A DNA stretch of 64,000 nucleotides from Pseudovirgaria hyperparasitica (GCA_010093815.1 ML996565.1), one strand, 5' to 3'. Shown: positions 10,611 to 41,121, counted from the first letter of the stretch. Notes: generated by a model from the sequence alone, not told the origin. Numbers and translations: made by a program.

Positions 10611-10630
10611 AAGTATAAGTTACGAACACG

Positions 10631-13400: not shown

Positions 13401-13619
13401 AGGGGAGGACTAGGTGACTAACCTTATATTAGGATTTACGGATGAGGACGGTACCGGCCCCGGCGCCGTGTAAACCTAGGGTAGGGCTAGGTGAATAACC
13501 TTTTCATGTCTTAAGGCGGGTGTCGGTTTATTATTAGGTTACACTAGGTACTAGCGTTCGGCGTTTATTTCTTTCTTTCCTAAAATCTCTACTCTTATAT
13601 TAGGTTGTCGGGGCCGCCG

Positions 13620-16600
13620 TGGGCCTATAATAGTAGAGTAATATTACTACTTAGGGATGTGTTAGAGTCGTAGGCCGTTATATAATCGAGCGTCGCCATA
13701 TCTAGACTCGAACCGGTCTAGCGCCTCGGTATCTTCTACGTCCTCAAGTAGGACCTATATTAGTTATAACTAACCTTTCTACTTTACGAGCACCTGTCGC
13801 TTATTCCGCCCCCGTGTATTTTTTATACGTAGGATGTCCTTAACCTTATACTCCGCGACGTCCTCGTCTACTTCGTTAAGCTCGAGCGCTAGGCCCGGGC
13901 GGGTATCGAGCCGCTCTTAGCTAGGTAGGGGGTCCTCTACGGCGCGCTTGATAAGGCTTATATAGACTATTTTATAAAGGTCTCCGGGGAGGTTAAGGGT
14001 TACTATTAAGGGGGTAGGTTAGGCTATAACCCGGTATTTTACCTATAGCTAGTCGAGCTTCCGGCTTAGGCGGTTAGTCTTTATGTTCCGGAGGGAGAAC
14101 TATACTATATCGCTAACCTTAAAACGCTTAGCCGGGCGTCGTAACCGGTTTACCGAGTCTTAGGAGCGCTGCTCGGCCTAGGTAATAGCCGCTTAAGCTA
14201 AGGTAGTGCCGTCCTAAAGGTGTTTAAGGAAATTCATAGCCTAACCTTTCGCCGAGGTCGTAGAGGCGTTAGGGAGTGGCTACCGTGGCAATAGTTCGAC
14301 GTAGTATCCGTTTAGGAGTAAGTTTAGCGCTATACTAGTTACTAATAAGGTACGGTTATTAAGGGCGAGCTAACATACCGGGAGATATTCCGGCTAGTTA
14401 GTTTACTCGAAAGTCACTATAACGCGTAGTATAGCCTGCACCTCCTGGTTCGCACGCTTAGTACCGCCGTCCGTCTACGGGTAGTAGGCCGTAGAGAGGT
14501 CCTAGCGCACACCTATTATGGAGTAGAGGGTTATCTAGAACTACCTAAGCTAGTCCGAGCCCCGGTCCGTGATTATCAACTAGGGGAACCCCTAGAAACG
14601 CCACCACGTGTTACGGAACCGCGTAGCGTAGTCCTCGGCCACTATAGAGGTTATCGCCTCTAGCTAAATAAACTTTAAGAGCCGGTCTATAATAATAAGA
14701 AGATATCGGGGCCGGGACGGGTCCGATTAGGGGAGGTCGGTCATAAAATCTATAGAAATTTAGGACTAGAACTAGTCCGGCGTCGGAAGAGGCTAGAGGA
14801 GGCCAGGGGCCTTACGTTAGTTTATATAGGCCCTATAGTAGTTATAGTTTCGCACGAACTACTAGATATCGGCCTATATCCGCTCCTAGTAGTACTCCCG
14901 CCGAATGGCTACGTAAGTCTCGTTCTTACCGGGATGGCCCGCGAGGGGGGAGGTATAGGACTTCTAGATAATGGTCGTGGTAAGGGGTTCCCACTCGGGC
15001 ACCTAAATAACCCTCCGCTATATTAGTGTTCCGTATACCGATATAGCGTAGTCTATAACCTATTTAGTAGTAAGCGCCTCCGGTAGGAAGAGGCGTGCCC
15101 CGCCTACCACGGCCCCGTGGCGGGCCCGGTATACCGGGACTAACTAAATAGCCTAGTCCTAGAGCTCCTAGAGGTGGGGGTTGGTAAAGATGCTTCGTCC
15201 CTAGGGGAGATAGGACTCCCCGGAGCGGGTACTTACTAGTGCTATTCTAATGGCCCGTGGGGTCATGAGCCGTCCCCTTAGGAGGGACTTTTTAGATAAG
15301 TTCTAGTCACGGCGGCTTAGGGCATCCGGGCGGGCCGCCTAGGATCCCGGCCGGTATACGAGATCGTAGTTAAATAGTATAAGCTAGTCGGACCATCGTT
15401 ACTACCGTGGGATAAGAAGGTAAGACTTAGTAAAGTACTCGAGGTTTTTATAGTCCGTATAGACCGTGAAGGGGTGGTAGACGCTTTAGAGCTTAGGTTC
15501 CCACGCCTAGAGATACTAAACTACTATAAGGAGCTCCTTATCATGGATCGTATAGTTCCGCTAAGCGGCCGTGAGGGCCGCGGAATAGTAGGCCACCGGG
15601 TACTAAATACCCCGAACCTTTTAGGATAGGCATCCACCCGTCGCGTGTCCGGAGTAATCCGCCTCGACTATTATATCGCGTGTCTCGTCCTAGGACTAGA
15701 GGATTAGCCCGGTAATGAAAGCGTTCTTTAGCGTATTAAACGCGCGGTCCTTGGCCGGGCCCTAGTAGAAGGCCGTCCCGGCCTTAGTAAGGGCGTGGAG
15801 CGGGGCCGCTATGGTAGAGAAGTTAGGGAGGAAGTTATAGTAGAAGTTTACGAACCTAACGAACCGCCGGACGCCCCGGACCGTAGTTAGGGGCTTCTAG
15901 TCCCGGATAGCGGCGATCTTCTCCGGGTTAGGGCGGATTAACTCCCTAGCGGTAATAACGTAACCTAGGTACCGGACCTCCTTAGTAGCGAAACGGTATT
16001 TAGTAAGGTTATAGTAAAGGTCCGCCTTTATAAGGAGAGATAGGATAGTTTTTACGGCGGCCTAGTGGTCTTCTAACGTGCCCGGGGTGTATATAAGGAC
16101 ATTATTAAGATACGCTATATAGGTAACCCCGAGGACCCCGCTTAGTGCCCCGTTAATATAGTACTAGAAGGAGGTAGGGGCGCCGGAGAGACCGAAAGGG
16201 AGAACTATCTATTCGAAGAGGCCGAACCGGGTACGGAAGGTCGTCTTATGTTCGTCCCTAGCGGCGACCTATAGTTTATGAAATACCGCCCGGATGTCCA
16301 CCTTACTAAACCACGACGCATTACTAATGGTGTATAGGGTCTCGCGTATGAGTGGTAGCGGGTATCGGTCCTATTCAGTAATGCTATTAAGGGCCCTATA
16401 GTTAATATATAGCCGCTACTTCCCTCCCGGCTTAGGGATAAGGAGTACCGGCGCCCCGGCCGCTAAGGAGCTAGCCCGTATCCATCCCTTATCTATGAGA
16501 TCCGTAAGCTAGCGACGGAGCTCCACGAGTTATTTCTAAGATATAGCGTAGAGGGGTCCCTAGGGGAGGTTCATGGGGGTTCCCGCCGGTATAGACTTAA

Positions 16601-18630
16601 TGCGGATATAGTAGTCGGTGTTCCCTCTATGGGGAGGTAGCGCCGACGCCTTTTCCTTATTAAAGAGATCGCGGTAGGTGTATAGCGTTAACGGGAGCGG
16701 GCGCCTATCCTCCGTAAGCTTAGTCGCGTCCCGGCCGGTTACCGGAGGTGACTAGGGGAGCATAAGTTATAGGAGGCGGGTGACGTCGCGGATACTAGTA
16801 GCGACTACTCGCCTACGGCGGTAAGCCGTCTCTAGACCCCTAGGAATATAGCCCTTCTTGGTAAGGACCCGGATGCTTATTAGGCGTCTATAGGTATTAA
16901 TATCCCGGGCTATAAGGCCGTGGGCGCGGTAAAGCGTGATTTCGCCTACGCGTATATCGATAACGGCGCCGGCCTAGTAGAGCCACGGGCTCCTAAGGAT
17001 GAGGTCCCGGTTAAGCCCGGGCACCATATAGGTGGTAAGGCGTTATCGCTACCCCGCGATGTCATACTAGATGGTAACGACTTCCGTAATCTCCGGTCCT
17101 AACGCTCCGTTAGCGGCGAGAGCCACTCGACGACGTAGAACCGAGATACACGACTTAGCCACGTCCGCCGTAAGGGCCGGGCTAACCGCCGCGAAACACT
17201 CGCACCCTATATCTACTAAGGCGTCCATATGCTTCCTATTCTAGAGGAATAGCGATATAATGGGTGGGGGTCCGTCCATAACCCGAGCGGGCGCGCTGTC
17301 CTCTAGGTCGGAGCCGTTATCCGGGTCGCCCATGGCTTCGTTCCTTACTAAATGTGGTAACGTCCCCCGACCCGGGCTTTAGTAGGGGGCTATACTTCCC
17401 CCGCCTTAGAGTTAGAATTAGTATTATCCTAAGCCGGGGCCGCAACCTTAAGCGCTCGTATATTAATAGCGTTTAGACAGCCCCGGTGTTAGTAGCCAGC
17501 CTAGCCGCACCGGGTATACACGCCCGCCGTGCGGCGCTCCTAGAATAAGTCCTTCGGGATCCACGAAGGAGTCTCTTTCTTCTTAACCCCGTCCCTACCC
17601 TTTACCGTTAGAGACGCGGCTCGCTCCTTACCCTTTATCTTAACGGCCTTAATAGCGACCGCCGACATCGTCGTGTCGCCGTCCTTATCCTTACTAGGCC
17701 TATTTTAAGGTGCGGCGCTTTGCCTAGTGCGGAGCCGGAATAACTCTATATCTATGCCGATATCCCGAAGGCGGCCTACGGCGGCCTTATACTAGTCTAG
17801 GAGGCCCCGGTTTAGGGCCACCGCCTAGGTCTCCTAGTTAAGGCCGTCCCGGAGCCGCATAAGCTTCTAGTCGTCGGCCTAGTATATTCCCCTAGCCTCC
17901 TAGAGGGCGGTATAGAACCGCACGAAGTACTCCATAAACGGCTCCTTTACCTTTTACGTAATTATATTTAACCGCTAGAGGGCCCGCTCTTTGGCATGTG
18001 TGTCTCTAAACTAGAATTTAAGGTAGTCTAAGAACGCGTGCGGGTCCTAGTCGCCGTTTAGCCCCCTAGTGGAATACACGGCGCTAACCCCCCTCTATAC
18101 CTTAGGCGCTAGGTTAGCCTAAATAAGGGCTATTTAGTCCCTATGGGTGCCGATAAAGTCGGCGTCCCGGGTAATCTTATACCGTATCGTGACGGACCAT
18201 GTACGGAAAAGGGCCTTAGACCCGTTATACGGGTCGCCAAGGGGGAGGGGCTTCCTCTTAGGAGCCCGGTCGAGTATAATATACGGCGTAGAAAGTGGTA
18301 AGGCGGGAGCGCGCGTAGGAAAGGCTGGTTCGGGCCCGTATAGGCGTTAGGGCGCTACCGGGGAGGAGTCGGGCTAGGGTAGGGACGAGTCGCCATAAGT
18401 TAAGGTAGCGGGAGTACGGCTATGTAACTCGACCGTAAGGAGGCGGGCGTCGATACGTTATAGAGCCGTATAGACGCTATATTCGATATTAGATATCCGA
18501 GACTCGCTTACCGCTTAGACGGCCGTAATAGACTCATGGATAGACCGTATCTCGTCCCGAAAGCTAAGGAAGGAGTTAGAGAGTTACCGTATTAGATTAG
18601 AGTCTTACGGGTTAAGACTGTCTTATACTA
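13620..18630 (-). pseudogene. Element D gag-pol (zinc knuckle, PR, RT, RNase H, IN, chromodomain)
   Basis: After reversing RIP: CTRCGQAGHQHRGC ~17480-17525, AYLDDVLI ~16095-16120, chromodomain-like EY.V.DIL...VLVKWKGW..PTW ~13700-13860. Confidence 0.85.
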
Positions 18631-18912
18631 TAAGGCCACGTATAGGAAGAGATAATCGAAGTTAAATTAATGTAATAGATATAACCAAGGTGTTACTATA
18701 ATGGTAATTAAGATATATTATGATTTAACTTAGTGAGTGTAGGGATAAGCCGTATAGTTATAGCTTTAAGTATAGTCTTAAGCGAGGTCACGTGATACCC
18801 CTATACTAGTCTCCATCCGTCCCGGCTCCGTTATATAATGCTAGAGATAAGGCAAAGCCGAAGTCTATAACAAACACGTTAATTATTTTTAATACCTATT
18901 GATATTTCTAGC

Positions 18913-19280
18913 CGCCGCGAGATCCCTAGCGCCTAGGCTATCTATTCTAGGGAGTCTATCCTAGCTATAGAGGCCGTAGAGAGGATTCGCTCTATCCCCT
19001 CTCGTCCGTCTCGCGCTACTAATAGATCTTATAAGAGGTCTACTATTTCTCCCTCTAAGTCGCCTTATAAGAGGGTATATATTCCCTTCTAGATTATTCT
19101 AGATTATATTAGCTAACTTTAGACCTAGTCGCTGCGCTCCGGCGCTTAAGGCTCTTCCCTCTAGGCTCTAATGGATTAGGTTATTACTCTAGAGGCTAAG
19201 GTTATTACCCTCCGCCGCTATATCGTGCGGTTAGAGAGGACTATACTAGAGGTTATAACGGATAATAAGATAGAGGAGTA
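18913..19280 (+). pseudogene. Element B1 antisense accessory gene, 3' exons
   Basis: Frame resumes after acceptor TTTCTAG ~18911; further intron GTATAT..GCTAAC..TAG ~19075-19122; charged coiled-coil-like end. Confidence 0.45.
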
Positions 19281-19849
19281 GCTCTATGGTTCTGGCTCTG
19301 TGTGTTAGCTCTATATATTCTAGATCTACTATAGGTGGTGCGCGCCGGCTCTATTTACCTGGCTTTTATCCGTTTTAGTCCTTTTTTAGACCGTTTAGAT
19401 ACCCGTCGGCTAGTTTCTAGTAATTTAATTCTTAACTTAACGATATTATGTGTGCGCTCGCTTAGCTTATAACTATCGGTTTCTATATTCTAATTTTCCT
19501 TAAGTCACCTAAGTATAGGCACCGTATATTAATTAGTTTATCTCTATGAATTCTATTAGAGTACCTAAACTAGTAGCCTAGTAGTTATTAGTTCGGGTAC
19601 TCTAACCTTTTATATTTTATGTTAAGAGTTTAATTCTATGGTAGGGTATCTTTTTTAGGTTCTTAGTCCTATATTTTTCTCGTATATAATAGTCCATATT
19701 AGTCTATTCTAGACTCTTCTATTATAGTATATCGCGTTACGTTTCTAAAATAGTTACTTACGCTTTCTTCGCGTCTAGTAACCGTGCGACACTTAAATTA
19801 TAGGGCTACCTTATAGAGTTTTCCTAGTGCGCGTCTAGATTTCCTAATT

Positions 19850-22800
19850 AAGTACTTCGTTCTCTATGATATCCTTCTTCTTTTTATAATAACCGCGACG
19901 TCGCTATGTTTATATTAATAATATACTATTCTATATCTTTTACTTATACGCAGCTATTATAGAACTTAAGATATATACCGCTGGTTCCTAGGTGTCCTCG
20001 TCCTTAGTGCAGTCCTTCTAACGGATTCTATATTTCTAAATACCATCTTTATTAATTCTATGTTTAATAATATAGTCTACTTCGAACACGTCTAGTCTAT
20101 CTTAGGGTATAATAGAGTATAACTATACGTTCGTGCGGTTATACACGTTAGGTTAAAATCTTTTAAGTAGTAAGACGTGGAACACATTATAGATTCTTAT
20201 ATCGCTTTCTAAGTCGAGCTTATAGGCTCTTATACTAATATAACGTTTGATTTAGAAGGGACCAGCTATTTTATAATTAAGCTTCTTATTTACTTATAAC
20301 GTTTATATATTATAGACGTTAAGAAGGACCTTATCGCCCTCCTCGTACGTCTAATCCTTAGCTAACCTATTATAGTACTTCGTATACGAGTCGTTTACTT
20401 ATTAGATTATAGCGCGATAGTTACGTACGGTTTTAAAGATTTTAATCGCTAATTCCTAAGCGTGGACGTTCACGTCTATTATTCGATTAAATTAGACTAT
20501 ATAAGGCTTAAAACCTATCCTTAGACTGCGTCCGAGGTTCGCCTAGAAAGGTATAATACTAGTCATGCTATAACGACTATTATTATATATGAACTCTACT
20601 ATACTTAGTAGGGAGGCCTAGTCGTCCTTACTCGAAATTATAGAATACGCGTAGATAGGCTTCGAGCGTCTAGTTCTATCGCTCTATCTAGCTATCCGTC
20701 TAAGGATGAAATACTATAGATATATTTCTATTCATGCTTACTATTTCGTAGAATAACGTCTAGAATTTAGACGTGAAGGTACTTCCTCGGTCCGTAACGA
20801 TCCTTTTTAGTATACTATAGACCTTAATAATCTCGTTCTAGAATACCTACGCTAGTTCTTTAGATATAATCGTCTTCTACACCGGGATATACCTAGATAT
20901 CTTTATAAGTCTATCCACGATAATAAGAATAGAATTATAACTTATTCTAAGTATCTCGCTTAGAGGTAAGTTAACTATAAAATCTATAGTAACGTCTTTC
21001 TATATAAAGAGGGGGACTAAAAGAGGCTATAAATTCCTATATAGCTTATACCTAGGGGCCTTCATTCTTTAATAAATCGGATAAGTAGCTATCTATTCTT
21101 CGACGTACTTAGGTATATCTTCCTAAAAATAGTACTAACGAATTAAGCTTAGGGTACGTATATACCTAAAGTGTCCTACTAGGTTAGCGTTATGGTATCG
21201 GCTAACTATATTAAATTACGCGTTATCTATTAGTATATAGTACTTTCTATTATAGTAAAGTAAGCCGTCTATAAAGGTCTACTTATAGTCTACTTTAGTC
21301 CGTAATAACCTATCTTACTATATTTTATATAACTTTAAAACTATCGGGTCTATCTTCTATAGATCTATAATTAACTAGGCGAGGTTAATTAGATATTCAC
21401 GCCAGGCATTATCACCCTTCCCAATAGCGCTAATAAACGGCCTACTAGGGACTTCGGTACCGCGTCTTTAGTTACCGGCTTCGGTCTTAGAGATTCGATT
21501 ACCGGCATCGACGTTAGTATCTCGCTAATCGTCTAATAACTTAAAATCTAACCTCGTCCTTAAGAGTTAGGCCTATAGCTACTCTAGGACCCTATAGCTA
21601 CTATAATTCTAGGCGCCTTCTTTATAGTTAGGTCTTCTTAATATTCTATTAGCTAGGTTTATACTTCTAGGTTAATAGTAGATTATAAAGTGAAAGTTCG
21701 TAAGCTACTTAGCCTATTAAACCTATCAACGGTTTAAAACCGTCATACTTATAAACCCCTTTAAGTTATAGTAATTAGTTAGTAACTCGACGTTATATAT
21801 AGTACCTTTAAGATAATATCGCTACTATTTAAATGACTCTACTATTACTAGTAGCTCTTAGTTATAGATAATATATCTAGTCTTAACATTAACTATTTTA
21901 CGCGAGAAGAACGTAACTAGATACTATTAGACCTTTTTAGACTTAGTTAGTCTAGGCTAGGAGAGAATACCTAAGATTATAAATTCTAACGCGTCGGTTT
22001 CGACGTGGATAGATTTAGTTAGATCGAAGTATACTAGTAATGGGGCAGTAATAAATACCTCTTTGATTTTCTCGAAGGAGGCCCTTTCGCCTTCTAATAA
22101 TTCTATAGGCTACAATTTAATATTACGCTATTTCTATCTACCGCGGACCGTAATAGACGAATCTATAGTAGTAGTACGCGCGTTAAGCGGTGCTACTAGC
22201 CGGGAGAAGTACTTAACGAATTTTTAGTAGTAATTAGCGAATCTAATAAAGACACGTATATCTTAAACCGATTTTAGTTTAGGCTAGTCCACGATAGTAG
22301 CGACCCTATCCCTTTCTATAGTTATACCTTAATTAGTAATAACGAAGCTAAGGAAGTTAACGTGGTCCTAGTAGAACTTATATTTAGATAGCTTAATATA
22401 TAGCTTATATTTTTCTAGTCTATCTAGGACTACGCGTACGTGCTAGATATATTCTTCTTCGTTATTAGAGAAGATAAAAATGTCGTTAAGGTATACGATG
22501 CACGTCGTGTTAAGTAGGCCTACTAGCGCGTTATTAATGTACGCTTAGAAGGTCCCTAGCGCGTTAGTTAGTCTAAAAGGGACTACTATATACTTAAAGT
22601 ATCTATAACGGGTCCTAAACGCCGTTTTCTACTTATCGCCCTTCTTAATATATAGGCGGTAGTAGGTATCGCGTAGATCGAGCTTAGTAAAGATCTTCGT
22701 ATACCCTAGTCTATTAATAGACTCGGAGATAAGAGGTAGTAGGTAACAATTCTTTCGCGTAATATTATTTAGGCTATAGTAGTCGATACATAGACGGAGA

Positions 22801-25000
22801 CTCCTATCCTTCTTCTTTATAAAGAGGATTAGAGCTCCGGCTAGGGATATACTAGGCCTAATCTATTCTCGCGTAAGGTTCTTTTCGATGTATTCTCGGA
22901 GGACCTATAGCTTAGGTTCTAATAGAGGGTAGATAGGTCCGTGTGGGGGTTATTAACCGTTCTTAAGGTTAATAGTAAGATCGGTAGATTGGTATTAAGG
23001 TAATTCGGACGAGTCGATCGCTAACGCGATATATTAGTATATTTTATACTAATATAGTAGGTTTTCGTCTACTTTAATACTAAGTTCTCTATTTTAAGTA
23101 AGTAAGAGGACGTAGATAGTAGAGATTACCTTTTTATAGTTCTTCTAGAATTATTTATCGTTAACTAGCTATACTAGGTTCTATTATAGTGGGTGCATGC
23201 ACTAGCCAGCTATTTTCTAGATAAAGTCTAGTTTCGGGTTATATTTTTCGAGCTATAGTATACCGAGAATCATGTTAAAGGGGCTATCTACTACGATAAA
23301 GGTTAAGTAGTAGGGTTTCTACTTCCCCCCGCTATCCTAGATACCGTATTTAATAGTATAGGTACCCTACGATTTAATAGGACTATCGATACTATAGAAG
23401 GTAGTATCTATTAATACTTAAATATCGACGTTAAGTTCTCGTGCTTATTAAGTCGATATAACGTTAGTAGCTAAACCGCTATTAAGTATTACGGTCTAAT
23501 GTTATCCACGGGGGACCTTAATAGGCCTAGCCTATAGTTCGATATACTAGTTAGCTAGTTATCCCTCTATTTTAGTTATATCTATAAGTCACGAGGGTTT
23601 CTCGTAGGTAGTTAGTTTTTTATATTATATACTAGGTAGTTAGGCGCGATATATCCTAGCTACTAGTACTTATAGTATATAACTAACTTAGTATCTATAT
23701 TAGTATTCAGTGGTTTCCTAGAGCGGTACTCGGGTACTATATGGCCTATCCTACTATAAGTATAGTAGGTGACTTTAGGTCGTTTATACGAGTCGTTTCT
23801 CGCGTCTTAATATATCGACCGGTAGAAAGATCCGCGGTATAGGCCTCGTCCTCTTAAGTTCGTAGAGTAGTAGTACCCATAAGGTATTCCGCGCGATCTA
23901 TTACTAAACCGGTCCTCTTTAGATGATTTCGTATCGGATTAGATTAGTAGGGATAGTCGTGCGCCTATACGGCGTTGGTTATTTATTATATACTAGTGTC
24001 GTTCTACGAGATTCGCGAGTGCCTAAAGGTTAGTAGAGATAGACGTTATAAGGTTAATACGTTTCTTTACGCTCGGATTAAGGGACCTTTTAAAGTCGTC
24101 GTATTATTAAACCATATAATCTTTCTCGGCTTCTCTCTAGAGAGGTCGGAGGTATTTAAGAAGTTATAACGGGGATTATCTTTCTCGCTATTAAGTCTTA
24201 AAGATATAGCTCTAAGCCTATTCGCGTCGCTCGGCTCTATCGCCGAAGTATTAAAGAAGGAATTCGGTGAACGTGTCCTAGTTATACGTATCCTTAGAGT
24301 GTTTAATTCGATATACCATCTAACGTTTAGATAGCGTTAGGTCTAGGTAGTTCTATACGAATCTAATCTTATTACTATCGTTCGTGAATAGGTGGAAGAA
24401 TCGGCTATACTAGTAAGTCTATTCGTGAAAGCTCCTTCTAGTTTTACCGTCGAAGTAAGGTAGTTTCTTAGGCTAAGGTAACTAGAATAGTAATAGACTT
24501 AGTTAGACTATTTTAGCTTAAGTTAGTCTATATTAGTATAGGTTAGTTACTACTAGTACTAAAGCGCGTAGTACGGCTTTGAGTCTAGTAGTTTATCCTT
24601 ATACTTTATTAAGTTCGCGAAGTTACTACTCGAGCTAAGTCTAACGCTACCTCTCTATATATAGCTTAGTATATACGTCGTCGTAAGGCGTGGTTAATAT
24701 TAGTTAGTTCTAATAAATTAGTTCGTTAACGTTAATAGGGTCTAGTCTTATAGTAAGGATAGGTCTAGTATAGTATAAACTAGACCGCGATGGAGTATAA
24801 TAGACTCCTTCCTTATTATCTAGGTAATCTTCTATGGTTATACGGAATACCGTACTAGTTATTAGTGCGATAGCCTATAGGGTATGCTCGTCGGTGGAGG
24901 TGGTCGTAGAGAGACTATTCTCTTCGTTTAGATTTAGAGAGAGTCTCTCGTATAAGGTAGTACTACGGGTATTATAGCGCGTAGTAGAAGCTATCTCTAT
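19850..25000 (-). pseudogene. Element B1 gag-pol
   Basis: Reverse complement of B2 gag-pol; RT core (CIVYLDDI, RIP-altered) ~22475-22505. Confidence 0.87.
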
Positions 25001-25035
25001 AAGCTACCGTCGTGCTATATAGAGAGGAATTAAAA

Positions 25036-25273
25036 TATAAAGAGTAAAGACGTAGGATAGTAGTCTAATAGTTTATAGAGAGATATAGGAATATATTTAT
25101 AGAGTAGTCTTACTCTTATACGAGGTTGATTCCTAACGAGTAGGAATCGGTTTATACGGTCTACTTATATAGTAACCTCGCTTAACCTAGCTAACTCATC
25201 CCAGCTCTAGCCGCTACGTGGCTGCATGGATTAGAATAGTCTATATAGGTCCGTTAGGGTTCCCGTTCTAACA
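25036..25273 (-). repeat. Element B1 5' LTR
   Basis: Direct repeat of 9001-9238, ends ...CTAACA followed by TSD CTCGT. Confidence 0.92.
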
Positions 25274-25278
25274 CTCGT

Positions 25279-26500
25279 AAGGTTAGTACGATAGCGCAAC
25301 CTACGGTAAATAAACTTAATAGCTATAGCGATGCTAAGATCGAAGTAGTAGGTTACATAGGCCTCCGAGTTCGATCTAATTACTACTTCTTTTTAGGGAA
25401 GTCTATTAAGTTTATATAGTAGTTAGCTTACTAGAGTAAGTCCTTATCTCGTTAATTATCTTTAACGGTTAGCTAACTTATTCTAGGGTAGCTATTCTCG
25501 GACCCTCCTATCGACGGAACGCTCTATAAGGAATTTATCGATAGTCTTATTAAGGCGTACGCTAGTAGTTAGCACGCCTCGATTCTAAAGGATCTACTTC
25601 TATTCTATATAATGGATAAGTTCGGTAACTACTATTATTCTTAGGATATCGTGGTAGGAGGAGAGATCTTTCGGGATCCTTCAAAACGCCTAGATAGGTT
25701 ATATTCCTATACTATTCCGGCTATCCTAGGCATGATGGCTCGCGGCGTATACTAGTACTTTAGCGATAGCGTCTATAGTTCTTATTCTACTAGTAAAGGC
25801 ATCTTTAGGGAGTGTGTATAGCTTTTTTCTAACGGGTTCCTACTATTTAAAGGTACCTATTTAAACTATTTCCACTAAGGGAATAGGAAATTCTATAGTA
25901 TATCGCGTTATAAGTTATTCCTTTATATCGTTAAAGGCTTTTAATAGGTTTAACGCGTTCCTATAGTGTACCGTAGCGAGCGTAACGTCATTAAAAAGCG
26001 CTAATATACCGAGTAGTCTTTATTTATAGAGATAACTAAGGCTACTAGAAAGTATTTGGCTACCAAACTTTATTAAAAGAAGTTATTAGGTCTTAAGGAG
26101 ACTAGGTCAAACTCTAAGGCTAGTCCTTCGCTCGTGAGTTAGATTTATATCTCGTATAATCTCTAGCTAATTAAAAGGTTATAGCTATAATAGAATAGAT
26201 GTATTACGGCGGTCCGGAGGTCCTTATTCCTAGCTTTAATAATACTATACCTCCCGACCCGAGTATTATCCCTATTCGTTCTATATAGAACCTTAAAGAT
26301 AAAGGACTTCCGCTTAACGAAGCCGTTAAAGATTGGTTTAGTCGTCCGATAAACGCGTTTAGCGAGGTTAGCTACACGCCTTAAGGGCTACTATATAAGT
26401 TCTTAATTAACGATAGCATGCCCGAGGAGGGCGAGAAGGTATTAGTATAATTTACGAAGAATCCACTGAATTCTACTCGTAAGGTCTAGGACTAAGTAGG
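25279..26500 (+). pseudogene. Element A antisense accessory gene, 3' half with DUF3716-like Cys6 motif
   Basis: Frame continues across the B1 insertion (TCT CGT|AAG GTT); intron 25436-25486; 25774-25896 reverts to CxxC-x9-C-x14-CxxC-x8-C with KGIFRECV and GxCxNC. Confidence 0.68.
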
Positions 26501-26799
26501 CGGCTTCTATTTTATAATGATACCCTATCTTATTAAGCATTAAAAGGCGTTAACGGCTTTCTTTTATCTCTATTTGGTCTTACGGTTCTTAAATAGCGAT
26601 TTTAGACTTATATAATATCATTATAAGTCCACGTCTTCTTTCTTTAACCTCCTAGTAATTTCTAAGGCTCGTTAATCTTCTTTAATAGCTATATATATTC
26701 TAAATAAGTAAATAGGGGGTTAGTAGTACTATATATAAAGGAGATAATTAGGGAAAGACTAAAGTTAGTTATATTCTAAGCTTTCCTATAATAGCTTTA

Positions 26800-29700
26800 A
26801 AGGTAATATCTTTTTCCATAGGGAGTACCTCTCTCCCTCTAATCTATTAACTCGTCTTAACGCGCTAGCCATAGCCGCTTAGGTTTCTCTACTACGTTCA
26901 TCTATATAGGATCGCTTTCTCTTTCGCGTGTAAGGTTCGCTTTCTATAAGATCCCGTATAGGGACGTCCGAGTCGGTTAGGGGTTATTTATTTACTTTAT
27001 TAACCTCCTTTAACACTTCTTCTATATCCGAGTCTATATCTATACTTATAGGATTCTTATATTCTAGTTAGATATCCTTATCTAAGTCTATTCGTGTATT
27101 ATTAAACTCGTCTCCTAAGCTTATTTCTTTAGATAATTCTTCCTGTCTCGCTTCTATCGTGGCTTCCTCTACTATATTAATCTCGTTTAACGGGTTATCT
27201 ATCGGTTTCTTAGTTATCGTTTAGGCTTCCTCTACCCTTAGAGCATTATAGCTCTCTTTAATGTTTATTATTAGTAGTTATATTACTCCGCTATTCTCGT
27301 GTTATTCTTCTAGTATATTTCTTAGTTCGTTAATAACGATTAGCACTAGTACAATTAACGTAGTTGTGGTAGCTCTCCGTTTACGTCGATTTCTTATATT
27401 AGTAAGCCTAATTTAACGCGTAATATCTATATCTATCGAGCTCTCCCCTACTAAGAACGAACGTACGCCCTTATACGTTAACTCTCGTTAACTCCGTAGC
27501 TACTATAGCCGATTCTACTCCTTCTTAGGAAGGGAGGATAGAGTCGTCTAATATAGAGTAGGTTTCTCTTTCTCTAAAACCTTCTTAATATCTAGTAAGT
27601 GAGGTGCCACTTAATTCCTAATTTCCTTAGACATTTATAAGTTAATCTCCTATCTCGTCTAGAAGTTATCTAGCTTATTAATATCTCTTACCGTAATTAG
27701 CCTATTACCATATATAAGGTGTCGTAGGATACGTCCGTTAGGTGTTTCTAGCGCGTATATATCTAAGGGGTGTTACATGTGAACCTTATAGGGACCTAAG
27801 TAGTTTATTTTAAACTTCATTTTCTATTTATTCTTTAGTAAAATGATTTAACCGATAGGTAGTCGCGCCTAGTCTTTAGGTTTAAGCCGAGTCGGATCTA
27901 TAAGGTCTCGGCGAGCGGCTTCTATAAGTAGTTTATTTAGCGCTAGCGTCCTAGCGTGTTATACTTTCTTAACTCGCTTAATAAGTTCGTTAAAGGATAT
28001 TAACTTATCCTTTTCTCTAGGAATATTCCCTAGTAAGTTAGGGTGCTATCTATATACTAGATAATATAGACTAACTCCTATACTCCTATATCGTCGGATC
28101 CTCGTGGCGAAAACGGCGGCTAGTAAGTATATATCCTAGTTAGTTACTAGTTTACCTATATATATACGGGTAAGGATACCTCCTAAGGTTCTATTAAGGC
28201 GTTCGACCTTTCCGTTTATACGAGGGTAATAAGACGTAGTAAGTTTATATTCCGTCTTAAGGATACGTAGTAGTACACCAACCACTCTTAATAGGAACTA
28301 TTAACCGTTATCTAAGGTTAGTGCGGCGGGGGGTCTAAAATCTATAAAGATTCGTTCGTAAATGAACCTCGCGACGGACTCTACGGTCGCCTTAGGGCCT
28401 GCCTATATAATAGGCCATCCCGTTATATAGTTAATTACTATTATTACCTAACTATTACCGTTATACATAGTAGGGAGTACGCCTATAAAGTCGATACCCT
28501 ATTCTTTAAAGGGTGCTCGGCGTGTAACCCTATAAAACTATCTCTCGTATTATGGATTTGGTGGCACTCGTTACGCTAATTAGTATTAACGGCAATTACG
28601 AGCGACTACCTCTACGTCTTTCTTTATTTTAAACTACTAGCCTTGTTTTTCTAGGGCTTCTAGTAGTCCGGGCCATATAAAGTAACCGAATTATTAATAT
28701 ATAGTTTCTACTAGCGACTTATAGTATTATTCCGGGATATAAGGCGCTGAATTTTCCGCTAAATCTTCTTAACTATTATTAAAATCCTATAGCTTATATT
28801 AAAGTTTACTCTCGGCGTCGAGACGTAGTTAAGATAGGATTTTAGGAGAGACTTTTAGTACATGCTCTATCGGGTCGGCTCCTTTTAGAAACTCGATGAT
28901 TTAGACTATAAGAACGTGTTCGTTAACTTTACTTAACGGCATCGCGGAGATCTCGCCTTAGAAGTCTAGCCTTCTACTAATGGCGTTAGGTACTACCGCC
29001 TTAGATTCTAGGCGATATTTTATATCGAGATCGAAGCTTCCGAACTTATTAATCTATCTATCTACACGGCCTCCTTATTCCTTTATAGACTTAAGGAACT
29101 ATAGGCTATGGTAATCGGTTAGAATCGTCGTCTTCTTCGTTCCTAGTAGATATCCCTAAGTACGTAGGGCGTATTTAATGGTAAGGAGTTCTTTTTTATA
29201 AACCGGATAGTTAAGCTCGGCGCCATTAAGCTTTCGTCCGTTAAACGCGATTAGCTAATACTACTTACTAGGATCCTTCTAGTAGATTACTATACCGATC
29301 GCATAGTTACTTATATCCGTTTTAATATAGAAGGGCTTAGTCTTATTAGGTTAAGCTAGAACCGGTTCGGAATATAGGGTATTCTTTAGGGTCTTAAAGG
29401 TAAACGCCGTTAATAGCGTCCATTAAATAGACCTGTATTTCTATTTACGGATAAGAGGGTCTACTTCCTTAAGGAGGTCTATTAGGGGTACGGCGATACT
29501 CACGAATCCCTAGATATACCTCTAATAATAATTCGCTAGGCTAAGGAACTATTAGACTTCGCTAACGTTCGTAGGCTCTAGCCATTCGCAAATTACCTTA
29601 ATCTTATCCTTTATTAGGCGAAGTTATCCTTATAAGACGTGGTATCTATAGAAGTTAACTTCGGTCTAGCTAAAACTATATTTCTCTAGATTAGTAAGTA

Positions 29701-31774
29701 AGTAGTATTCACGGAGTAGGGTAAGTACTTTTAATAGTATTCTAGTATGTTCTTCCATATCTTCGGAAAAGATAATAATATTATTAAGGTATATAACCAC
29801 GGATTTATATAGTAGGGGTTAAAGGACTCGATTTATTATCTTTTAGAATATAATAGGTGCGTTTAATAGACCGAACGGCATTACCTTAAACTCGTATTTA
29901 CCATAAATCGTGTTAAAGGCGGTCTTAGGGACGTCTTCGTCGGCTACTCGTACTTACTAAAACCCTAAGGTTAAGTCTATCTTACTAAACACTATTAACT
30001 AGCCGAAGGCACGTAGGCATTCGTCTATATATAGAAGAGGGGTCGTATCCTTACGCGTGAGTATGTTAAGTACTTGATAATTAATATATATTCGCTATTT
30101 GCCTCCGGGTTTAGATACGAAAAGTACTAGGCTACCCTAGGCACTTCCTAATTCTTAGATAAGCCCTCGCTCGATAAGCTTCTATATCTACTTCTACTAT
30201 TTAGCGATTTATTCTAGGGAGAGGCGGTAGACGGCGTTATTAACGGGTCGGCCGTCTTCTATATCTATCTTATAGTCCCATTATCTCGAAGGTAGTAGTC
30301 CTTTAGGTAGCTTCTCTTTAAAGACGTCCTAGTACTCCGTTAAAACCGTTTATAGTATTAGATCGGGTGCCTATAGTATAGGAGGGTTATCTTTCCTAAT
30401 AAACCACATTATACCTTGCTTATAGCCGTTTAGATATTATTTCCGTGCTTAGCTAGCGGTAAGGATGTTTAGCACTTATTCTCCTTATAAGTTAATATCG
30501 ATTAACGCGGGAATCCCCTTAAGGAGATACTCCTTAGTCCTTTCTTAAGCTACTAGCCTTCTAATTACTAGAGAATAGAATCTCTATAATATATCGGGAT
30601 CCTATTTATAAAGCCATTTATAACCTAGAATTAGATCGTAGCCCTTAAGGTCGAGTACTCTCACGGAGATTTCGTAAGTAAAGCTTTCTATATAAAGAGG
30701 GATTTTTATAACTTCTCGACTTATTATTAGGGCTCCTAACAGAAGCTTAACACGTATTACGGGGGTAGATTACGGTACTAGCTTTAGACGTCTAGTAACC
30801 TTCGTTAACGTATACGTTCTATTAGCCCTATAGTTAATAAGAACTAAAACCCTCTAGGGGTGGACTTCCCCTACGTAAGCCTTAAGTTCTAGTAACTATC
30901 TACTAATAGAGTTTAGTTAATAGAGGCGATCGTCGATAACGTCCGTTAACTCCTCTTAATAATAGTAGACACTCTCTAGCGATTCGTAAAGCGCGTTAAT
31001 ATATTTATAGTTCTAGATATTTATCTTATTTTCATCGGTATTATTAGTATAGAAGCTCTTATAGTTACTTATAGTATCTTCTATATCCACTACGGGCGAC
31101 TAGCTTTTAGGGCCTCTTCGTTAAAGACGCTTAACACGTCGTCCTTAGTAGTAATATAGGCTAGCTTATCTAGAGTCGGATTTTCGGGGTAGAATCTCGA
31201 GATATATCCTAACTTCTTATAGTTAAAGTATTCTCGGGTTTCATTAAGAGCTCTTAACGAGCCTCCTTAGTATTTACCACGGCCTTAGCCTCGGTTCCAG
31301 CCTCTACCGCGGCCTCGGTTACTCTATTAACGCTTTATAAACGCGTGGAGCTTACCCTCGTCTCTAGAGTAGTCGCCTAATTTATCTTCGCGTATATATA
31401 AGTCCTTAGAAGGTTTAAATTCTTCCGGTTCCTCCTCTTTATCTTAGTAATATATAGTATTAATATAATGAGTAGCCTCCCGCCTATAGTATTCGTTTCT
31501 AGAGTAGGTATATAAGGCTTCCTCTAGCCTCTTTACCTATAGATACTACTCTCCTAATTCTATAGGAGGAAAGGGCTACTTTTCGATCTTACGTTAAACC
31601 TTAGACTTAAGAGCGCCTAGAATTCTACGCTATATCTTATATTTAGAAGGTATAGGTTATAGAAGTCGTGCCTTTTTAACGATAGCGTCGATAAGCTTTA
31701 AGATAGATCCGAAACGATATTAAGTAAGGTTCTTCTATTCCTTTCTACGCTATTCGGGGCGATTAGTAGAGATA
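26800..31774 (-). pseudogene. Element A gag 3' part and pol (PR, RT, RNase H, IN; no chromodomain recognised)
   Basis: CFNCKKLGHISRFC knuckle ~31186-31236, YLDDI-like ~29770-29800, integrase core ~28000-28600, WLGPYKV ~27785. Confidence 0.85.
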
Positions 31775-32047
31775 TGTTAGGACGGGAACCATAATAGACC
31801 TATATAGACCATTCTAATCCATGCAGCCACGTAGTGGCTAGAGCTAGGTTGAGTTAGCTAAGTTAAGCGATGTCACTATATAAGTAGACCGTATAAACCG
31901 ATTCCTACTTATTAGGAATCAACCTCGTATAAGAGTAAGATTACTCTATAAATACATTCCTATATCTCTCTATAAACTATTAGACTACTATCCCACATCT
32001 TCACTCTTTATATTTTAATTTCTCTCTATATAGCACGACGGTAGCTT

Positions 32048-35000
32048 ATAGAGATAGCTCCTACTACGCGCTATAATACCCGTGGTACTACCTTATATAA
32101 GAGACTCTCTCTAAATCTAAACGAAGAGAATAGTCTCCCTATAACCACCTCCACTAATAAGTACACCCTATAGACTATTATACTAATAACTAGTACGGTA
32201 TTCTATATAACCGTGGAAGATTACCTAGATAATAAGGAAGGAGTCCATTATACTCCATCGCGGTCTAGTTTACACTATACTAGACCCATCCTTACTATAA
32301 GACTAGACCCTATTAACGTTAATAAACTAATTTATTAGAACTAACTAATATTAACCACGCCTTACGACGATATATATACTAAGCTATATATAGAGAGGTA
32401 GCGTTAGGCTTAGCTCGAGTAGTAACTTCGCGAACTTAATAAAGCGTAAGGATAAACCGCTAGACTCGAAGCCGTACTACGCGCTTTAGTGCTAGTAGTA
32501 ACTAACCTATACTAATATAGACTAACTTAAGCCGAAATAGTCTAACTAAGTCTATTACTATCCTAGTTACCTTAGTCTAAGAAACCACCTTACTTTGATA
32601 GTAAAACCAGGAGGAGCTTTTACGAATAGGCTTACTAGTATAGCCGATTCTTCTACCTATTCACGAACGATAGTAATAAGATTAGGTTCGCATAGAACTA
32701 CCTAGACCTAACGCCATCTAAACGTTAGATAGTATATTAAATTAAATACCCTAAGGATGTATATAACTAGGACACGTTCACCGAATTCCTTCTTTAATAC
32801 TTCGGCGACAGAGCCAAGCGACGCGAATAGGCTTAGAGCTATATCTTTAAGACTTAATAGCGAGAGAGATAATCCCCGTTATAACTCCTTAAATATCTCC
32901 GACCTCTTTAGAGAGAAGCTAAGAAAGATCGCATGGTTCGATAATACGACGACTTTAAAAGGTCCCTTAACCCGAGCGTAAAGGAACGCATCGACCTTAT
33001 AACGTCTATCCCTACTAATCTTTAGGTACTCGCGAATCTCATAGAATAATATTAGCGTATAATAAATAACTAACGTCGTATAGGCGCATGACTATCCCTA
33101 TTAATCTAATCTAATACGAAATCGTCTAAAGAGAACCGGTTTAGTAATAGATCGCGCGGAATACCTTATAGGCGCTACTACTCTATGAACTCGAGAAGAT
33201 AAGGCCCGTACCGCGGATCTTTCTACTAGTCGATATATTAAGACGCGAGAAACGACTCGTATAAACGACCTAAAGTCACCTACTATACCTATAGTAGGAT
33301 AGGCTATATAGTACCCGAGTACCGCTTAGGGAAACCACTAAATACTAATATAGATACTAAGTTAGTTATATACTATAAGTACTAATAGCTAGAATACATC
33401 GCGCCTAACTACCCGGTATATAATATAAAAAACTAACTACCTACGAGAAACCCTCGTGACTTATAGATATAACTAAAATAGAGGGATAACTAGCTAACTA
33501 GTATATCGAACTATAGGCTAGGCCTATTAAGGTCCCCCGTGGATAACATTAGACCGTAATACTTAATAGCGGTTTAGCTACTAACGTTATATCGACTTAA
33601 TAAGCACGAGAACTTAACGTCGATATTTAAGTATTAATAGATACTACCTTCTATAGTATCGATAGTCCTATTAAATCGTAGGGTACCTATACTATTAAAT
33701 ACGGTATCTAGGATAGCGGGGGGAAGTAGAAACCCTACTACTTAACCTTTATCGTAGTAGATAGTCCCTTTAATATAATCCTTAGTATGCTATAGCTTAA
33801 AAAATATAACCCGAAACTAGACTTCATCTAGAAAACAGCTAGCTAGCGTATATACCTACTATAATAGAACCTAGTATAGCTAGTCGATAATGAATAATTC
33901 TAGAAGGACTACGAAAAGGTAATCTCCGCTATCTACGTCCTCTTACTTACTTAAAATAGAGAGCTTAGTATTAAAGTAGACGAAAACCTACTATATTAGT
34001 ATAAAATATACTAACATGTCGCGTTAGCGATCGACTCGTCTAAATTACCTTAATACTAACCTAACGACCTTACTATTAACCTTAAAGACGGTTAATAACC
34101 CCTATACGGACCCATTTACCCTCTATTAGAACCCGAGCTATAGGTCCTCCGAGAATATATCGAAAAGAACCTTACGCGAGGATAGATTAGGCCTAGTATA
34201 TCTCTAGCCGGAGCTCTAATCCTCTTTATAAAGAAGAAGGATAGGAGTCTCCGTCTATATATTAACTACTATAGTCTAAATAATATCACGCGAAAGAATC
34301 GTTACCTACTACCTCTTATCTCCGAGTCTATTAATAGACTAGGGCGCGTAAAGATCTTTACTAAGCTCGATCTACGCGACGCCTACTACCGCCTATATAT
34401 TAAGAAGGGCGATAAGTAGAAAACGGCGTTTAGGACCCGTTATGGATACTTCGAGTATATAGTAGTCCCTTTTAAACTAACTAACGCGCTAGGAACCTTC
34501 TAAGCGTATATTAATAACGCGCTAGTAGGCCTACTCGATACGACGTGCATCGTATACCTTAATAACATCCTTATCTTCTCTAATAACGAAGAAGAACACA
34601 TCTAGCACGTACACGTAGTCCTAGATAGGCTAGAAAAACATAAGCTATATATTAAGCTATCTAAATATAAGTTCCACTAGGACCACGTTAACTTCCTTGG
34701 CTTCGTTATTACTAATTAAGATATAACCATAGAAAGGGATAGAGTCGCTACTATTATGGACTAGCCTAAACTAAAATCGGTTCGAGACATACGTGTCTTT
34801 ATCGGATTTACTAATTACTACCGAAAATTCGTTAAGCATTTCTCCCGGCTAGTAGCACCGCTTAACGCGCGTACTACTACTATAGATTCGTCTATTATAG
34901 TCCGCGGTAGATAGAAATAGCGTAATATTAAATTATAGTCTATAGAATTATCGGAAGGCGAAAGGGCCTCCTTCGAGAAAATTAAAGAGGCATTTATAAC

Positions 35001-37200
35001 TACTCTATTACTAGTGTACTTCGACCTAACTAAACCTATCCGCATTAAAACCAACGCGTTAGGATTTATAATCTTAGGTATTCTCTTCTAGCCTAGACTA
35101 ACTAAGTCTAAAAAGGTCTAATAGTATCTAGTTGCGTTCTTCTCACGTAAAATAGTTAATATTAAGACTAGATATACTATCTATAACCAAGAGCTACTAG
35201 TAATAGTAGAGTTATTTAAATAGTAGTAATATTATCTTAAAGGTGCTATATATAACGTCGAGTTACTAACTAATTACTATAACTTAAAGGGGTTTATAAG
35301 CACGATAGTTTTAAACCGTTAATAGGTCTAATAGGCTAAGTAGCTTACGAACTTTCACTTTATAATCTACTATCGACCTAGAAGTATAAACCTAGCTAAT
35401 AGGATATTAAGAAGACCTAACTATAAAGAAGGCGCCTAGGATTATAGTAGCTATAGGGTCCTAGAGTAGCTATAGGCCTAACTCTCAAGGACGAGGTTGG
35501 ATTTTAAGTTATTAGGCGATTAGTAAGATACTAACGTCGATGCCGGTAATCGAATCTCTAAGACCGAAGCCGGTAACTAAAGACGCGGTACTAAAGTCCC
35601 TAGTAGGCCGTTTATTAGTGCTATCGGGAAGAGCGATAATACCTAGCGTGAATATCTAATTAACCTCGTCTAGTTAATCGTGGATCTATAGAAGATAGAC
35701 CCGATAGTTTTAAAGTTATATAAAATATAGTAAGATAGGTTATTACGGACTAAAGTAGACTATAAGTAGACCTTTGTGGACGGCTTACTTTACTACGATA
35801 GAAAGTACTATATACTAACGGGTAACGCGCGATTTAACGTAGTTAGCCGATACCATAACGCTAATCTAGTAGGATACTTTAGGTATATACGTACCCTAAG
35901 CTTAATTCGTTAGTACTATTTTTAGGAAGATATATCTAAGTATATCGAAGAATAGATAGCTACTTATCCGATTTATCAAAGAACGAAGGCCCCTAGGTAT
36001 AAGCCATATAGGAATTTATAGCCTCTTTTAGCCCCCCTCTTTATATAGGAAGACGTTACTATAGACTTTATAGTTAACTTACCTCTAAGCGAGATGCTTA
36101 GAATAAGTTATAATTCTATTCTTATTATCGTAGATAGACTTATAAAGATATCTAGGTATATCCTAGTATAGAAGACGATTACATCTAAAGAACTAGCGTA
36201 GGTGTTCTAGAACGAGATTATTAAGGTCTATAGTATACTAAAAAGGATCGTTACGGACCGAGGAAGTACCTTCACGTCTAAATTCTAGACGTTATTCTAC
36301 GAAATAGTAAGTATAAATAGAAATATATCTATAGTATTTTATCCTTAGACGGATAGCTAGATAGAGCGATAGAACTAGACGCTCGAGGCCTACCTACGCG
36401 TATTCTATAATTTCGAGTAGAACGACTAGGCCTCCCTACTAAATATAGTAGAGTTCGTATATAATAATAGTTATTATAGTATAATAGGTATTATACCTTT
36501 CTAGGCGAACCTCAGACGTAGTCTAAGGATAGGTTTTAAGCCTTAGACGGTCTAATTTAATCGAATAATAGACGTGAACGTCTATGCTTAGGAATTAGCG
36601 ATTAAAATCTTCGAAACCGCACGTAACTATCGCGCTATAATCTAATAAGTAAACGACTCGTATACGAAGTACTATAATAGGTTAGCTAAGGATTAGACGT
36701 ACGAGGAGGGCGACGAGGTCCTTCTTAACGTCCGTAATATACAAACGTCGTAAGTAAACAAGAAGCTTAATTATAAAATGGCTGGTTCCTTCCGAATCAA
36801 ACGTCGTATTAGTATAAGAGTCTACGAGCTCGACTTAGGAAGCGATATAAGAATCTATAACGTGTTCCACGTCTTACTACTCGAAAGATTTCGACCTAAC
36901 GTATATAGCCGCACGAACGTATAGTTACACTCTATTATACTCTAAGATAGACTAGACGTATTCGAAGTAGACTATATTATCGAATATAGAATTAATAAAG
37001 ATGGTATTTAGAAATATAGAATCCGTTAGAAGGACTATACTAAGGACGAGGACACCTAGGAACTAGTAGTATATATCTTAAGTTCTATAATAGCTACGTA
37101 TAAGTAAAAGATATAGAATAGCGTATTATTAATATAAGTATAGCGACGTCGCGGTCGTTATAAAAAGAAGAAGGATACCGTAGAGAACGAAGTGCTAAAC
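32048..37200 (+). pseudogene. Element B2 gag-pol with two CCHC knuckles and a chromodomain
   Basis: After reversing RIP: CYTCGRTGH...C ~33280 and CYKCQQLGH...C ~33370; CIVYLDDILIFS ~34547; FEVD.I..HR...YRIRWKDY..DEDTWE ~36960-37070. Confidence 0.87.
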
Positions 37201-37789
37201 TAGGAAATCCAGACGCGCACTAGGAAAACTCTACATAGTAGCCCTATAATTTAAGCGTTATACGGTTACTAGACGCGAAGAAAGCGTAAATAACCATTTT
37301 AGGAACGCGACGCGACACACTATAATAGAATAACATAGAAGAGTCTAGAATGGACTAATATAGACCATTATACACGAGAAAAACATGGGACTAAGAACCT
37401 AAAAAAAGGTACCCTACCATAGAATTAAACTCTTAACACGAAATATAAAAAGTTAGAGTACCCGAACTAATAACTACTAGGCTACTAGTTCGGGTGCTCT
37501 AATAGAATTTATAGAGATAAACTAATTTATATACGGTGCCTATACTTAGGTGACTTAAGGAAAATTAGAATGTAGAAACCGATAGTTATAAGCTAAGCAA
37601 GCGCATATATAATATCGTTAAGTTAAGAATTAAATTACTAGAAACTGGCCGACGGGTATCTAAACGGTCTAAAAAGGACTAAAATAGATAAAAGCTAGGT
37701 AAATAGAGCCGGCGCGCACCACCTATAGTAGATCTAGAATATATAGAGCTAGGCATAGAGCTAAACCCATAGAGCTAGAACCATAGAGC

Positions 37790-39234: not shown

Positions 39235-39955
39235 TATATATATACATTAGCTAGAGATCTAAGGAAGGAATATTCGTCTACCCTTAACGGCGATTAATGA
39301 AGCTAAATTAGTAACCGTAATAACGCGAATAGGTCACATAGAACCGGTTCTAATAAGAATAGACCACTATAGACCCTTCTAAACCTAAACTAGGGAAGAT
39401 AGTATATAAATTAACGACTTACCTTAAGAGCGAGGTGGATATACTAGAGAATAAAATTAAAGGCGAGCGAAGCTAAATATATACTCGACTAAAGTAGTAA
39501 TTATATATCCTAGGTAGTAGCCACGAAGTAAGGGATAAGCGCGTATATAAACTAGTAAAAGTGAACTAGAATCTCGAGTTTACCTATATTAAGGATAGTT
39601 ATAACGTTATAGGAACTTAGTTACGGATATATAGATATATAATAGATTATAGAGACTTAGAATTATATATACTTAAGTGCTTTAGGGCGAAGTATAAAAA
39701 GAAGAAGGATATTATTAGGACGGGAACTATAATAGATCTATATAGACTATTCTAATCTATATAGCCACGTAGTGGCTAGAGCTAGGTTAAGTTAGCTAAG
39801 TTAAGCGATATTACTATATAAGTAGACCATATAAACCGATTCCTACTCGTTAGGAATTAACCTCGTATAAGAGTAAGATTACTCCATAAATACATTCCTA
39901 TATCTCTCTATGAACTATTAGACTACTATCCCACGTCTTTACTCTTTATAAGATA

Positions 39956-40900: not shown

Positions 40901-40989
40901 ATATAAGGGGTAAGATAACTACCCCTTAGGAGGCATCGCCGAAGCGATAGCCTCCCTAGGAGGATAAAAACTAGATTTCAGCTACTAGA

Positions 40990-41121
40990 TATAGAAACTT
41001 TAGTAAATTAGACGTGGTAAAATTGATTAACGTGTCTACTAAGTCTATCTAAGTGCTATATATACCAGCCTAACGCTGAATAAGATCTAAGTAACGGGGA
41101 TTACCTAATAGGAATCCCACA
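40990..41121 (-). repeat. Element A 5' LTR (132 bp)
   Basis: Direct repeat of 7587-7718, ends TCCCACA followed by TCGA. Confidence 0.93.

Follow-up and report, generated by a model that had tools for sequence, protein, structure and literature searches.

Extra genes lying antisense to gag-pol have been described in Ty3/gypsy retrotransposons. In Botrytis cinerea, the gypsy element Boty/BcGypsy1 is described as carrying one such gene, brtn (PMC8365987, citing Zhao et al. 2011, Virology 417:248), and antisense additional ORFs are documented for plant Ty3/gypsy lineages (reviewed in PMC7264820; for Retand, PMC11963269). The domain DUF3716, presented as widespread in fungi in PMC8232023, is placed by the same account on a class II transposon: REP9, an IS3EU-like element of Zymoseptoria tritici, carries REP9-1 and REP9-2, both with DUF3716, REP9-1 being small and having six cysteines. 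The domain also occurs in host proteins. In F. graminearum, DUF3716 is present in PSC58, which has been named as orthologous to NCU05718 of N. crassa (PMC10776026); NCU05718 binds double-stranded TTAGGG directly and without an annotated DNA-binding domain (PMC4650311). We take it from these accounts that DUF3716 might be the DNA-binding part of NCU05718 and PSC58. Among the titles, abstracts, and passages of the literature that we searched, none described an LTR retrotransposon with a gene of DUF3716 type.

The locus studied here is a candidate antisense gene in a gypsy element, termed element A, of Pseudovirgaria hyperparasitica. It lies in a stretch of 64,000 nucleotides, hereafter the window, whose fungal origin, as expected of a DUF3716 host, is apparent from flanking ORFs matching eIF3g, Fung_rhodopsin, Pyr4-TMTC, NmrA, AATase, and others. 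From about 7585 to 41123, the window is occupied by a nest of transposable elements with a GC content of 0.34–0.39, the exception being the inserted element C (11209–18875). The RIP indices of the nest are extreme, at 1.7–2.0 for TA/AT and 0.15–0.31 for (CA+TG)/(AC+GT), as against 0.77–0.78 and 1.18–1.19 outside it. Element C itself is at ~50% GC despite RIP-type indices (2.0 and 0.31, respectively) and many in-frame stops. On the right flank (41124–41457), a FAD_binding_4 match (1.1e-14) starts at profile position 2, exactly at the boundary between LTR and target-site duplication, and on the left flank (7458–7584) there is a short ORF with its ATG just upstream of the target-site duplication. 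Judging from these flanks, the 33.5-kb nest probably splits a gene for a FAD-linked oxidase, into which element A was apparently inserted; this gene adjoins others of secondary-metabolism type (Pyr4-like cyclase, AMP-binding, NmrA, AATase, and zinc ADH).

Element A, which measures 9,087 nt once the insertions B1 and B2 are removed, is a complete but RIP-killed Ty3/gypsy LTR retrotransposon lying on the minus strand. Its 3′ LTR (7585–7720) and 5′ LTR (40988–41123) are both 136 nt long, 91% identical, bounded by the terminal inverted repeats GATGTGGG...CCCACATC, and flanked by the target-site duplication GATTC (7580–7584 and 41124–41128). On the pol-sense strand, a polypurine-tract-like stretch, GGAGGGGGAAG, read from the sequence at 7720–7730, abuts the 3′ LTR. 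The gag-pol region (26540–30985, minus strand) is supported by Pfam, tblastn, and codon signal. Pfam places RVT_1 at 30115–29651 (9.9e-20) and the RNase H domains at 29422–29048 (RT_RNaseH_2, 3.4e-23; RT_RNaseH, 1.1e-20). The integrase region was located by tblastn with the polyproteins P0002–P0004, which carry rve and Integrase_H2C2 and cover 30937–27518 at 33–36% identity. Both the LTRs with their target-site duplication and the order of the pol domains, RT, RNase H, and then integrase, are those of Ty3/gypsy elements. In the pol search, the nearest polyproteins were 35–37% identical at most. From ~27350 down to ~26540, no frame has a better codon score than that of pol, in agreement with the 360 residues that P0002 has beyond its integrase alignment. 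An extension of pol through the region of the motif discussed below was tried and rejected, the pol frame scoring −14.0 over 25487–25899. With B1 left out, about 2.5 kb of element A separates the 3′ LTR, at 7720, from the point near 26540 where pol ends.

The two insertions belong to one family, B, which is unrelated to A. B1 (9001–25273), a gypsy element with pol on the minus strand, is delimited by LTRs at 9001–9238 and 25036–25273 and by a 5-nt duplication, CTCGT, at 8996–9000 and 25274–25278; it is itself split by element C (about 11209–18875), a chromodomain-bearing gypsy element. B2 (31775–39950, plus strand), inverted relative to B1 and also nested in A, is flanked by the target-site duplication AGATA (31770–31774 and 39951–39955), and its 3′ region contains an assembly gap of 490 N (38129–38618), which masks the counterpart of B1 10335–10820. 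Family B has a region of ~2.7 kb between pol and 3′ LTR, where the same antisense frame is stop-poor in B1 (9640–10420, plus strand; 8 stops in 260 codons) and in B2 (38619–39320, minus strand; 7 in 234), the two copies having been RIPped independently. Its stop-free runs reach 103 and 130 codons, and the product, if encoded, would be rich in Ser, Thr, Pro, and Lys. The codon model described below lends this frame no support (−35 and −30), and it had no Pfam match. No similarity was detectable between the 3′ regions of A and B.

The antisense gene of element A had been proposed to run across the B1 insertion site, and the junction claimed there was borne out by a paralogous contig that reads through it. 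This contig covers 25274–25451 (178 nt, 14 differences), and immediately before 25274 it has 16 letters identical to 8980–8995. It follows that a copy without B1 exists and that 8996–9000 joins 25279.

In the gene model examined, all of it on the plus strand, a proposed exon 1 (8101–8485; 128 codons, 8 in-frame stops) would start at an ATA that may be a RIPped ATG. It is followed by an intron-like signal at 8486–8534 (49 nt, GTAATT..CTAAC..TAG), which shifts the frame, a proposed exon 2 (8535–8765; 76 codons, no stop), and a second intron-like signal at 8766–8815 (50 nt, GTAAGT..CTAAT..TAG), which returns it. The first part of proposed exon 3 (8816–9000; 61 codons, no stop) is cut by B1 after 9000 and would continue past it at 25279–25435 (52 codons, 3 stops), up to a third intron-like signal at 25436–25486 (51 nt, GTAAGT..CTAAC..TAG), which leaves the frame unchanged. 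The last exon of the earlier model spans 25487–25899 (137 codons, 6 stops), with an uncertain 3′ limit. All three intron-like signals were found where they had been placed, with canonical fungal 5′ sites, branch sites, and YAG ends. The view that they are three frame-restoring introns holds for introns 1 and 2, whose lengths shift the frame, and fails for intron 3: since 51 is a multiple of 3, its removal restores no frame and merely takes out in-frame stops.

The gene may be longer than proposed, and its motif would then be mid-gene instead of terminal. At 26134–26198, a 65-nt stretch (GTGAGT..CTAAT..AATAG, plus strand) can be read as a candidate intron 4 and would put a coding-like segment at 26199–26546 in frame with the last exon. 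This segment has an intact ATG start and 6 stops, and its codon score is pol-like (a no-stop log-likelihood ratio, LLR, of +12.7 over its 116 codons, as against −6.3 in the complement frame). One more exon of the gene is a possible reading of it, and a second small ORF next to the end of pol is the other. The interval from the last exon to candidate intron 4 (25900–26133) is without coding signal.

The frame had been described as continuous, which is true only if its stops are reverted: the spliced reading holds 17 of them in 454 codons (3.7%). They consist of 13 TAG and 4 TAA, with no TGA; the stops of the true pol frames (110 TAG, 62 TAA, and 1 TGA in 2678 codons, or 6.5%) are likewise dominated by TAG. 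Frames were scored with a codon log-odds model trained on RIPped, tblastn-supported pol frames. With element A held out of the training, its own pol frame reached +0.105 per codon, and the five remaining frames lay between −0.26 and +0.008. When the model was applied to the proposed gene, stops being excluded from the score, the predicted frame was the best of the three plus-strand frames in 5/5 exons; in exon 1, for instance, its no-stop LLR was +3.0 versus −14.8 and −35.2 in the other two. The total over the 454 codons was +6.2, for a null of −60.9 ± 14.8, and none of 1000 simulations, in each of which the least-stop frame was chosen, reached this value. An ORF on the opposite strand between pol and the 3′ LTR is thus present in a statistical sense, as a RIP-broken reading and not as an open frame.

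We looked for other copies of this segment, which would be a one-off capture if element A alone carried it. In runs X1 and X2, which held 94% of the query words, pieces were recovered over 30/30 bins of 25100–28300, many of them 90–99% alike, and five distinct X2 contigs covered position 25816, within the codons of the ECV triplet of the motif. Runs X3 and X4, from another sample under the same organism label, yielded a high-depth contig, 9,033 nt in length (in X3, 6,345 nt), whose differences from the window were mostly A>G (112) and T>C (80). This dominance identifies it as an un-RIPped relative of about one element length. It aligns with the window at 25659–25747, 25969–25999, 26190–26285, 26583–26985, and 27358–28299, and the intervals between these blocks are unequal in the two sequences by 57, 51, 12, and 0 nt, each of them divisible by 3. 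Over the 30 letters that precede 25659, aligned by eye, the TAG of the window at 25642 is CAG in the relative, and the TAC at 25630 is TGC, which gives one direct example of each kind of reversion that the earlier note had assumed. The segment is therefore not a one-off capture, since RIPped paralogs cover the motif codons and the un-RIPped relative aligns just upstream, at 25659–25747. Within 25748–25968, which holds the motif, the relative did not align at ≥80% and has 164 letters versus 221 in the window, that is, 57 fewer. While all copies seen in the strain of the window are RIPped, the high-depth contig suggests that in the X3/X4 strain the family has many copies and is, or was until recently, alive. 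Collectively, codon usage, the type and density of stops, the clustering of intron signals on the plus strand (see below), and the multiple-of-3 length differences from the relative make it probable that element A holds an antisense, intron-bearing accessory gene in the stretch from pol to its 3′ LTR.

We then turn to its Cys-rich part. In the claimed frame, the peptide reads ...PAILGMMARGVY, stop, YFSDSVYSSYSTSKGIFRECV, stop, LFSNGFLLFKGTYLNYFH, stop, GNRKFYSIS, and the DUF3716-like motif, with Y for C, is present as it had been quoted, at 25774–25899 on the plus strand (YSSYSTSKGIFRECV, stop, LFSNGFLLFKGTYLNYFH, stop, GNRKFYS). Each of the reversions invoked, from Tyr TAT to Cys TGT and from Thr ACC to Ala GCC, concerns a TpA that possibly derives from TpG, and a change from TpG to TpA is the canonical RIP context. 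The Cys of ECV is, as claimed, an intact TGT. For comparison we used what we take to be the DUF3716 pattern, C-x2-C...G-x-F-x2-C-V...G-x-C-x-N-C...C-S, a presumed consensus that comes from no tool. With [CY] allowed for Cys, this pattern, written like the intron patterns after the sequence had been seen, matched once (25774, plus strand) in the six frames of 7585–41123 and in none of 300 second-order Markov simulations. For the two halves of the pattern, 33 kb should give 0.013 and 0.027 occurrences by chance, yet both occur here in one frame and at the right distance, and the non-Cys residues of the pattern (G.F..CV, G.C.NC, CS) are intact and correctly spaced. Richness in C and Y is by itself commonplace, as 8.2% of 55-residue windows have 8 or more such residues.

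Database searches gave no match. Pfam, in which PF12511.13 (DUF3716) has 59 positions and a gathering cut-off of 22 bits, returned no family at E up to 10 for the RIPped reading with stops as X (407 residues, three frames, as well as a 55-residue piece with the motif). As five of the roughly eight conserved Cys now read Tyr, such a miss would be expected even for a true member. DUF3716 was also absent from the 85 ORFs of at least 90 codons across the window. The X-read plus-strand peptide had no match at E ≤ 0.001 by phmmer against 1.84 billion protein representatives, none at E ≤ 10 in word-index searches over the 223–713 and 84–268 residue ranges, and none in the PDB; in JGI metagenome contigs, 170 pattern matches were obtained and none was confirmed. 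P0002, the best of the polyproteins from the pol search, was not located in metagenome contigs or IMG/VR. A pol alignment led to 80 IMG/VR loci, 14 of them gypsy-like, the other 66 (7–9 kb, taken as plant pararetroviruses) being left aside. PF12511 was absent from one whole gypsy-like IMG/VR record and from 46 ORFs downstream of pol in 10 gypsy-like IMG/VR contigs, all distant relatives, and a RIP-degenerate DNA pattern from 25719–25747 had no match in IMG/VR. As regards the assignment to DUF3716 made by the earlier note, the presumed spacing is present here and absent from the 300 simulations, and Pfam and protein searches of the RIPped reading gave no backing. Membership, argued from this spacing, is plausible but unproven, and we hold it at a little less than an even chance.

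Under the reading that we prefer, the 3′ region opposite pol would carry an accessory gene of at least five coding segments, with three, possibly four, short fungal-type introns. Introns antisense to the genomic RNA escape splicing from the transposition intermediate, a logic exploited in antisense-intron retrotransposition reporters. By the same logic, antisense introns would survive reverse transcription, so that the element could inherit them, and retention through antisense placement fits the finding of three to four short introns on the plus strand only. The N-terminal half of the product would be basic and rich in Ser and Lys, and its C-terminal module would have had about eight Cys before RIP, of which from five to all but one are now Tyr through TpG-to-TpA changes. 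A basic, Ser/Lys-rich region joined to a module of about eight Cys suggests zinc-dependent nucleic-acid binding, and the product might be a zinc-dependent DNA- or chromatin-binding factor serving the element, for example in transcription regulation or target choice. For this gene we infer splicing, expression, zinc binding, DUF3716 membership, and function; the copy in the window is dead. The whole account, namely an antisense accessory gene of a RIP-killed element A with a DUF3716-like module, we consider to stand at even chances.

A possibility was that there is no gene at all, and that a long non-coding or UTR-like spacer has yielded frames, introns, and a motif by chance in AT-rich, RIPped DNA, picked out by eye. 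Stop-free runs of 35–85 codons are indeed found in many frames of RIPped DNA, so that run length does not discriminate. Intron patterns are at background level over the nest: the loose pattern had 13 matches in 33 kb on both strands versus 9.67 expected, and the strict one 3 versus 2.53. The score per codon of the predicted frame, 0.014, is close to zero and far below that of pol (0.154 in training), and the very large protein sets searched yielded no homologue. Against chance stand the codon score, which no simulation out of 1000 attained, the lead of the predicted frame in every exon, the motif missing from all 300 simulations, the length differences from the relative in multiples of 3, and the pol-like plus-strand score of 26199–26546. 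As for introns, the 1.5-kb gene has three loose-pattern matches on the plus strand (8486, 8766, and 25436) where ~0.22 were expected, for a Poisson probability of about 0.002 with a pattern written after the sequence had been seen; on the minus strand of the same 1.5 kb, there was no match. On balance, we regard the absence of a gene as unlikely. Another reading puts the coding on the pol-sense strand, as a third sense ORF or a long extension of pol, the plus-strand frames scoring well as its exact complement. In the pol control, the complement frame was in fact second best, and here the exact complement outscored the plus frame in exon 2 (3.9 versus 2.0) and in the last exon, counted as exon 5 (11.3 versus 3.5). 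In the 45-codon motif window (25774–25908), the plus frame had −6.0 and two complement-strand frames +2.7 and +2.3, and the residues of P0002 past its integrase alignment would also be in keeping with more pol-sense coding. Since complement frames score higher in places, the call of the strand rests on stops, which number 37 in the complement frames versus 17, on introns, and on the motif, the latter two being found within the gene on the plus strand only. Moreover, the complement frames total −0.1 versus +6.2, the pol frame loses its signal below ~26540 and is strongly negative over 25487–25899, and 26199–26546 clearly favours the plus strand. Coding on the pol-sense strand is for these reasons very unlikely.

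The gene could also be real and antisense while its Cys-rich part is something other than DUF3716, that is, another, perhaps family-specific, zinc-binding or disulphide-rich module, or a stretch that always had Tyr. The evidence for the gene, from codon usage, introns, and the relative, is the same in this case. Windows rich in Y and C are common in RIPped DNA, no search returned an HMM match or a homologue, and the un-RIPped relative is most divergent precisely at the motif, where it is 57 letters shorter and unalignable at 80%. What speaks against it is that the non-Cys residues of the pattern are intact and correctly spaced, in two halves that are each expected so rarely. We judge a non-DUF3716 module rather improbable. 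The question can be put to a direct test, given the high-depth, un-RIPped relative found in a different strain of this organism. If the antisense gene and its module are not confirmed, the window is an ordinary RIP-degraded gypsy nest. If they are, Boty with brtn would be joined by another fungal gypsy lineage, the second to have an antisense accessory gene and the first in which such a gene has a recognisable domain, one that a DNA transposon also carries; it would show how a retroelement can keep a spliced gene, and DUF3716 would gain a biological context as mobile-element cargo, probably DNA-binding. A wider proposal, decidedly unlikely in our estimation, is that in Pezizomycotina DUF3716 is an accessory DNA-binding module common to mobile elements of class I (this gypsy family, with an antisense, intron-bearing gene) and of class II (REP9/IS3EU), that a good part of the apparent host repertoire is element-resident or domesticated, and that the module binds repeat DNA as NCU05718 does, steering integration or countering silencing.

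How, then, does the locus compare with the systems described so far? Compared by description only, brtn of Boty-like elements is alike in being an extra gene of a fungal Ty3/gypsy element on the strand opposite to gag-pol; as far as its published description goes, the gene of element A differs by its three to four introns, its Cys-rich, DUF3716-like end, and the RIP-killed state of the copies in the window. The plant elements, in the accounts cited above, share the long region between pol and 3′ LTR with an antisense ORF, but their hosts are plants and their proteins unrelated, whereas the gene of element A has canonical short fungal introns. The host proteins NCU05718 and PSC58 provide, in the literature searched, the only functional clue for the domain; unlike the gene of element A, they are encoded by single-copy host genes and are not element-borne. 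Within the same literature, the nearest published precedent for DUF3716 as the cargo of an element is REP9. The likeness lies in a DUF3716 or DUF3716-like protein carried as non-transposase cargo by a multicopy fungal mobile element, and the difference in that REP9, as reported, is a DNA transposon (terminal inverted repeats, 6-bp target-site duplication) with real DUF3716 matches, whereas element A is an LTR retrotransposon whose protein is DUF3716-like by pattern. Antisense extra genes in gypsy elements and DUF3716 as cargo of REP9 are, from these sources, known already; what would be new, if confirmed, is their combination in one LTR retrotransposon.
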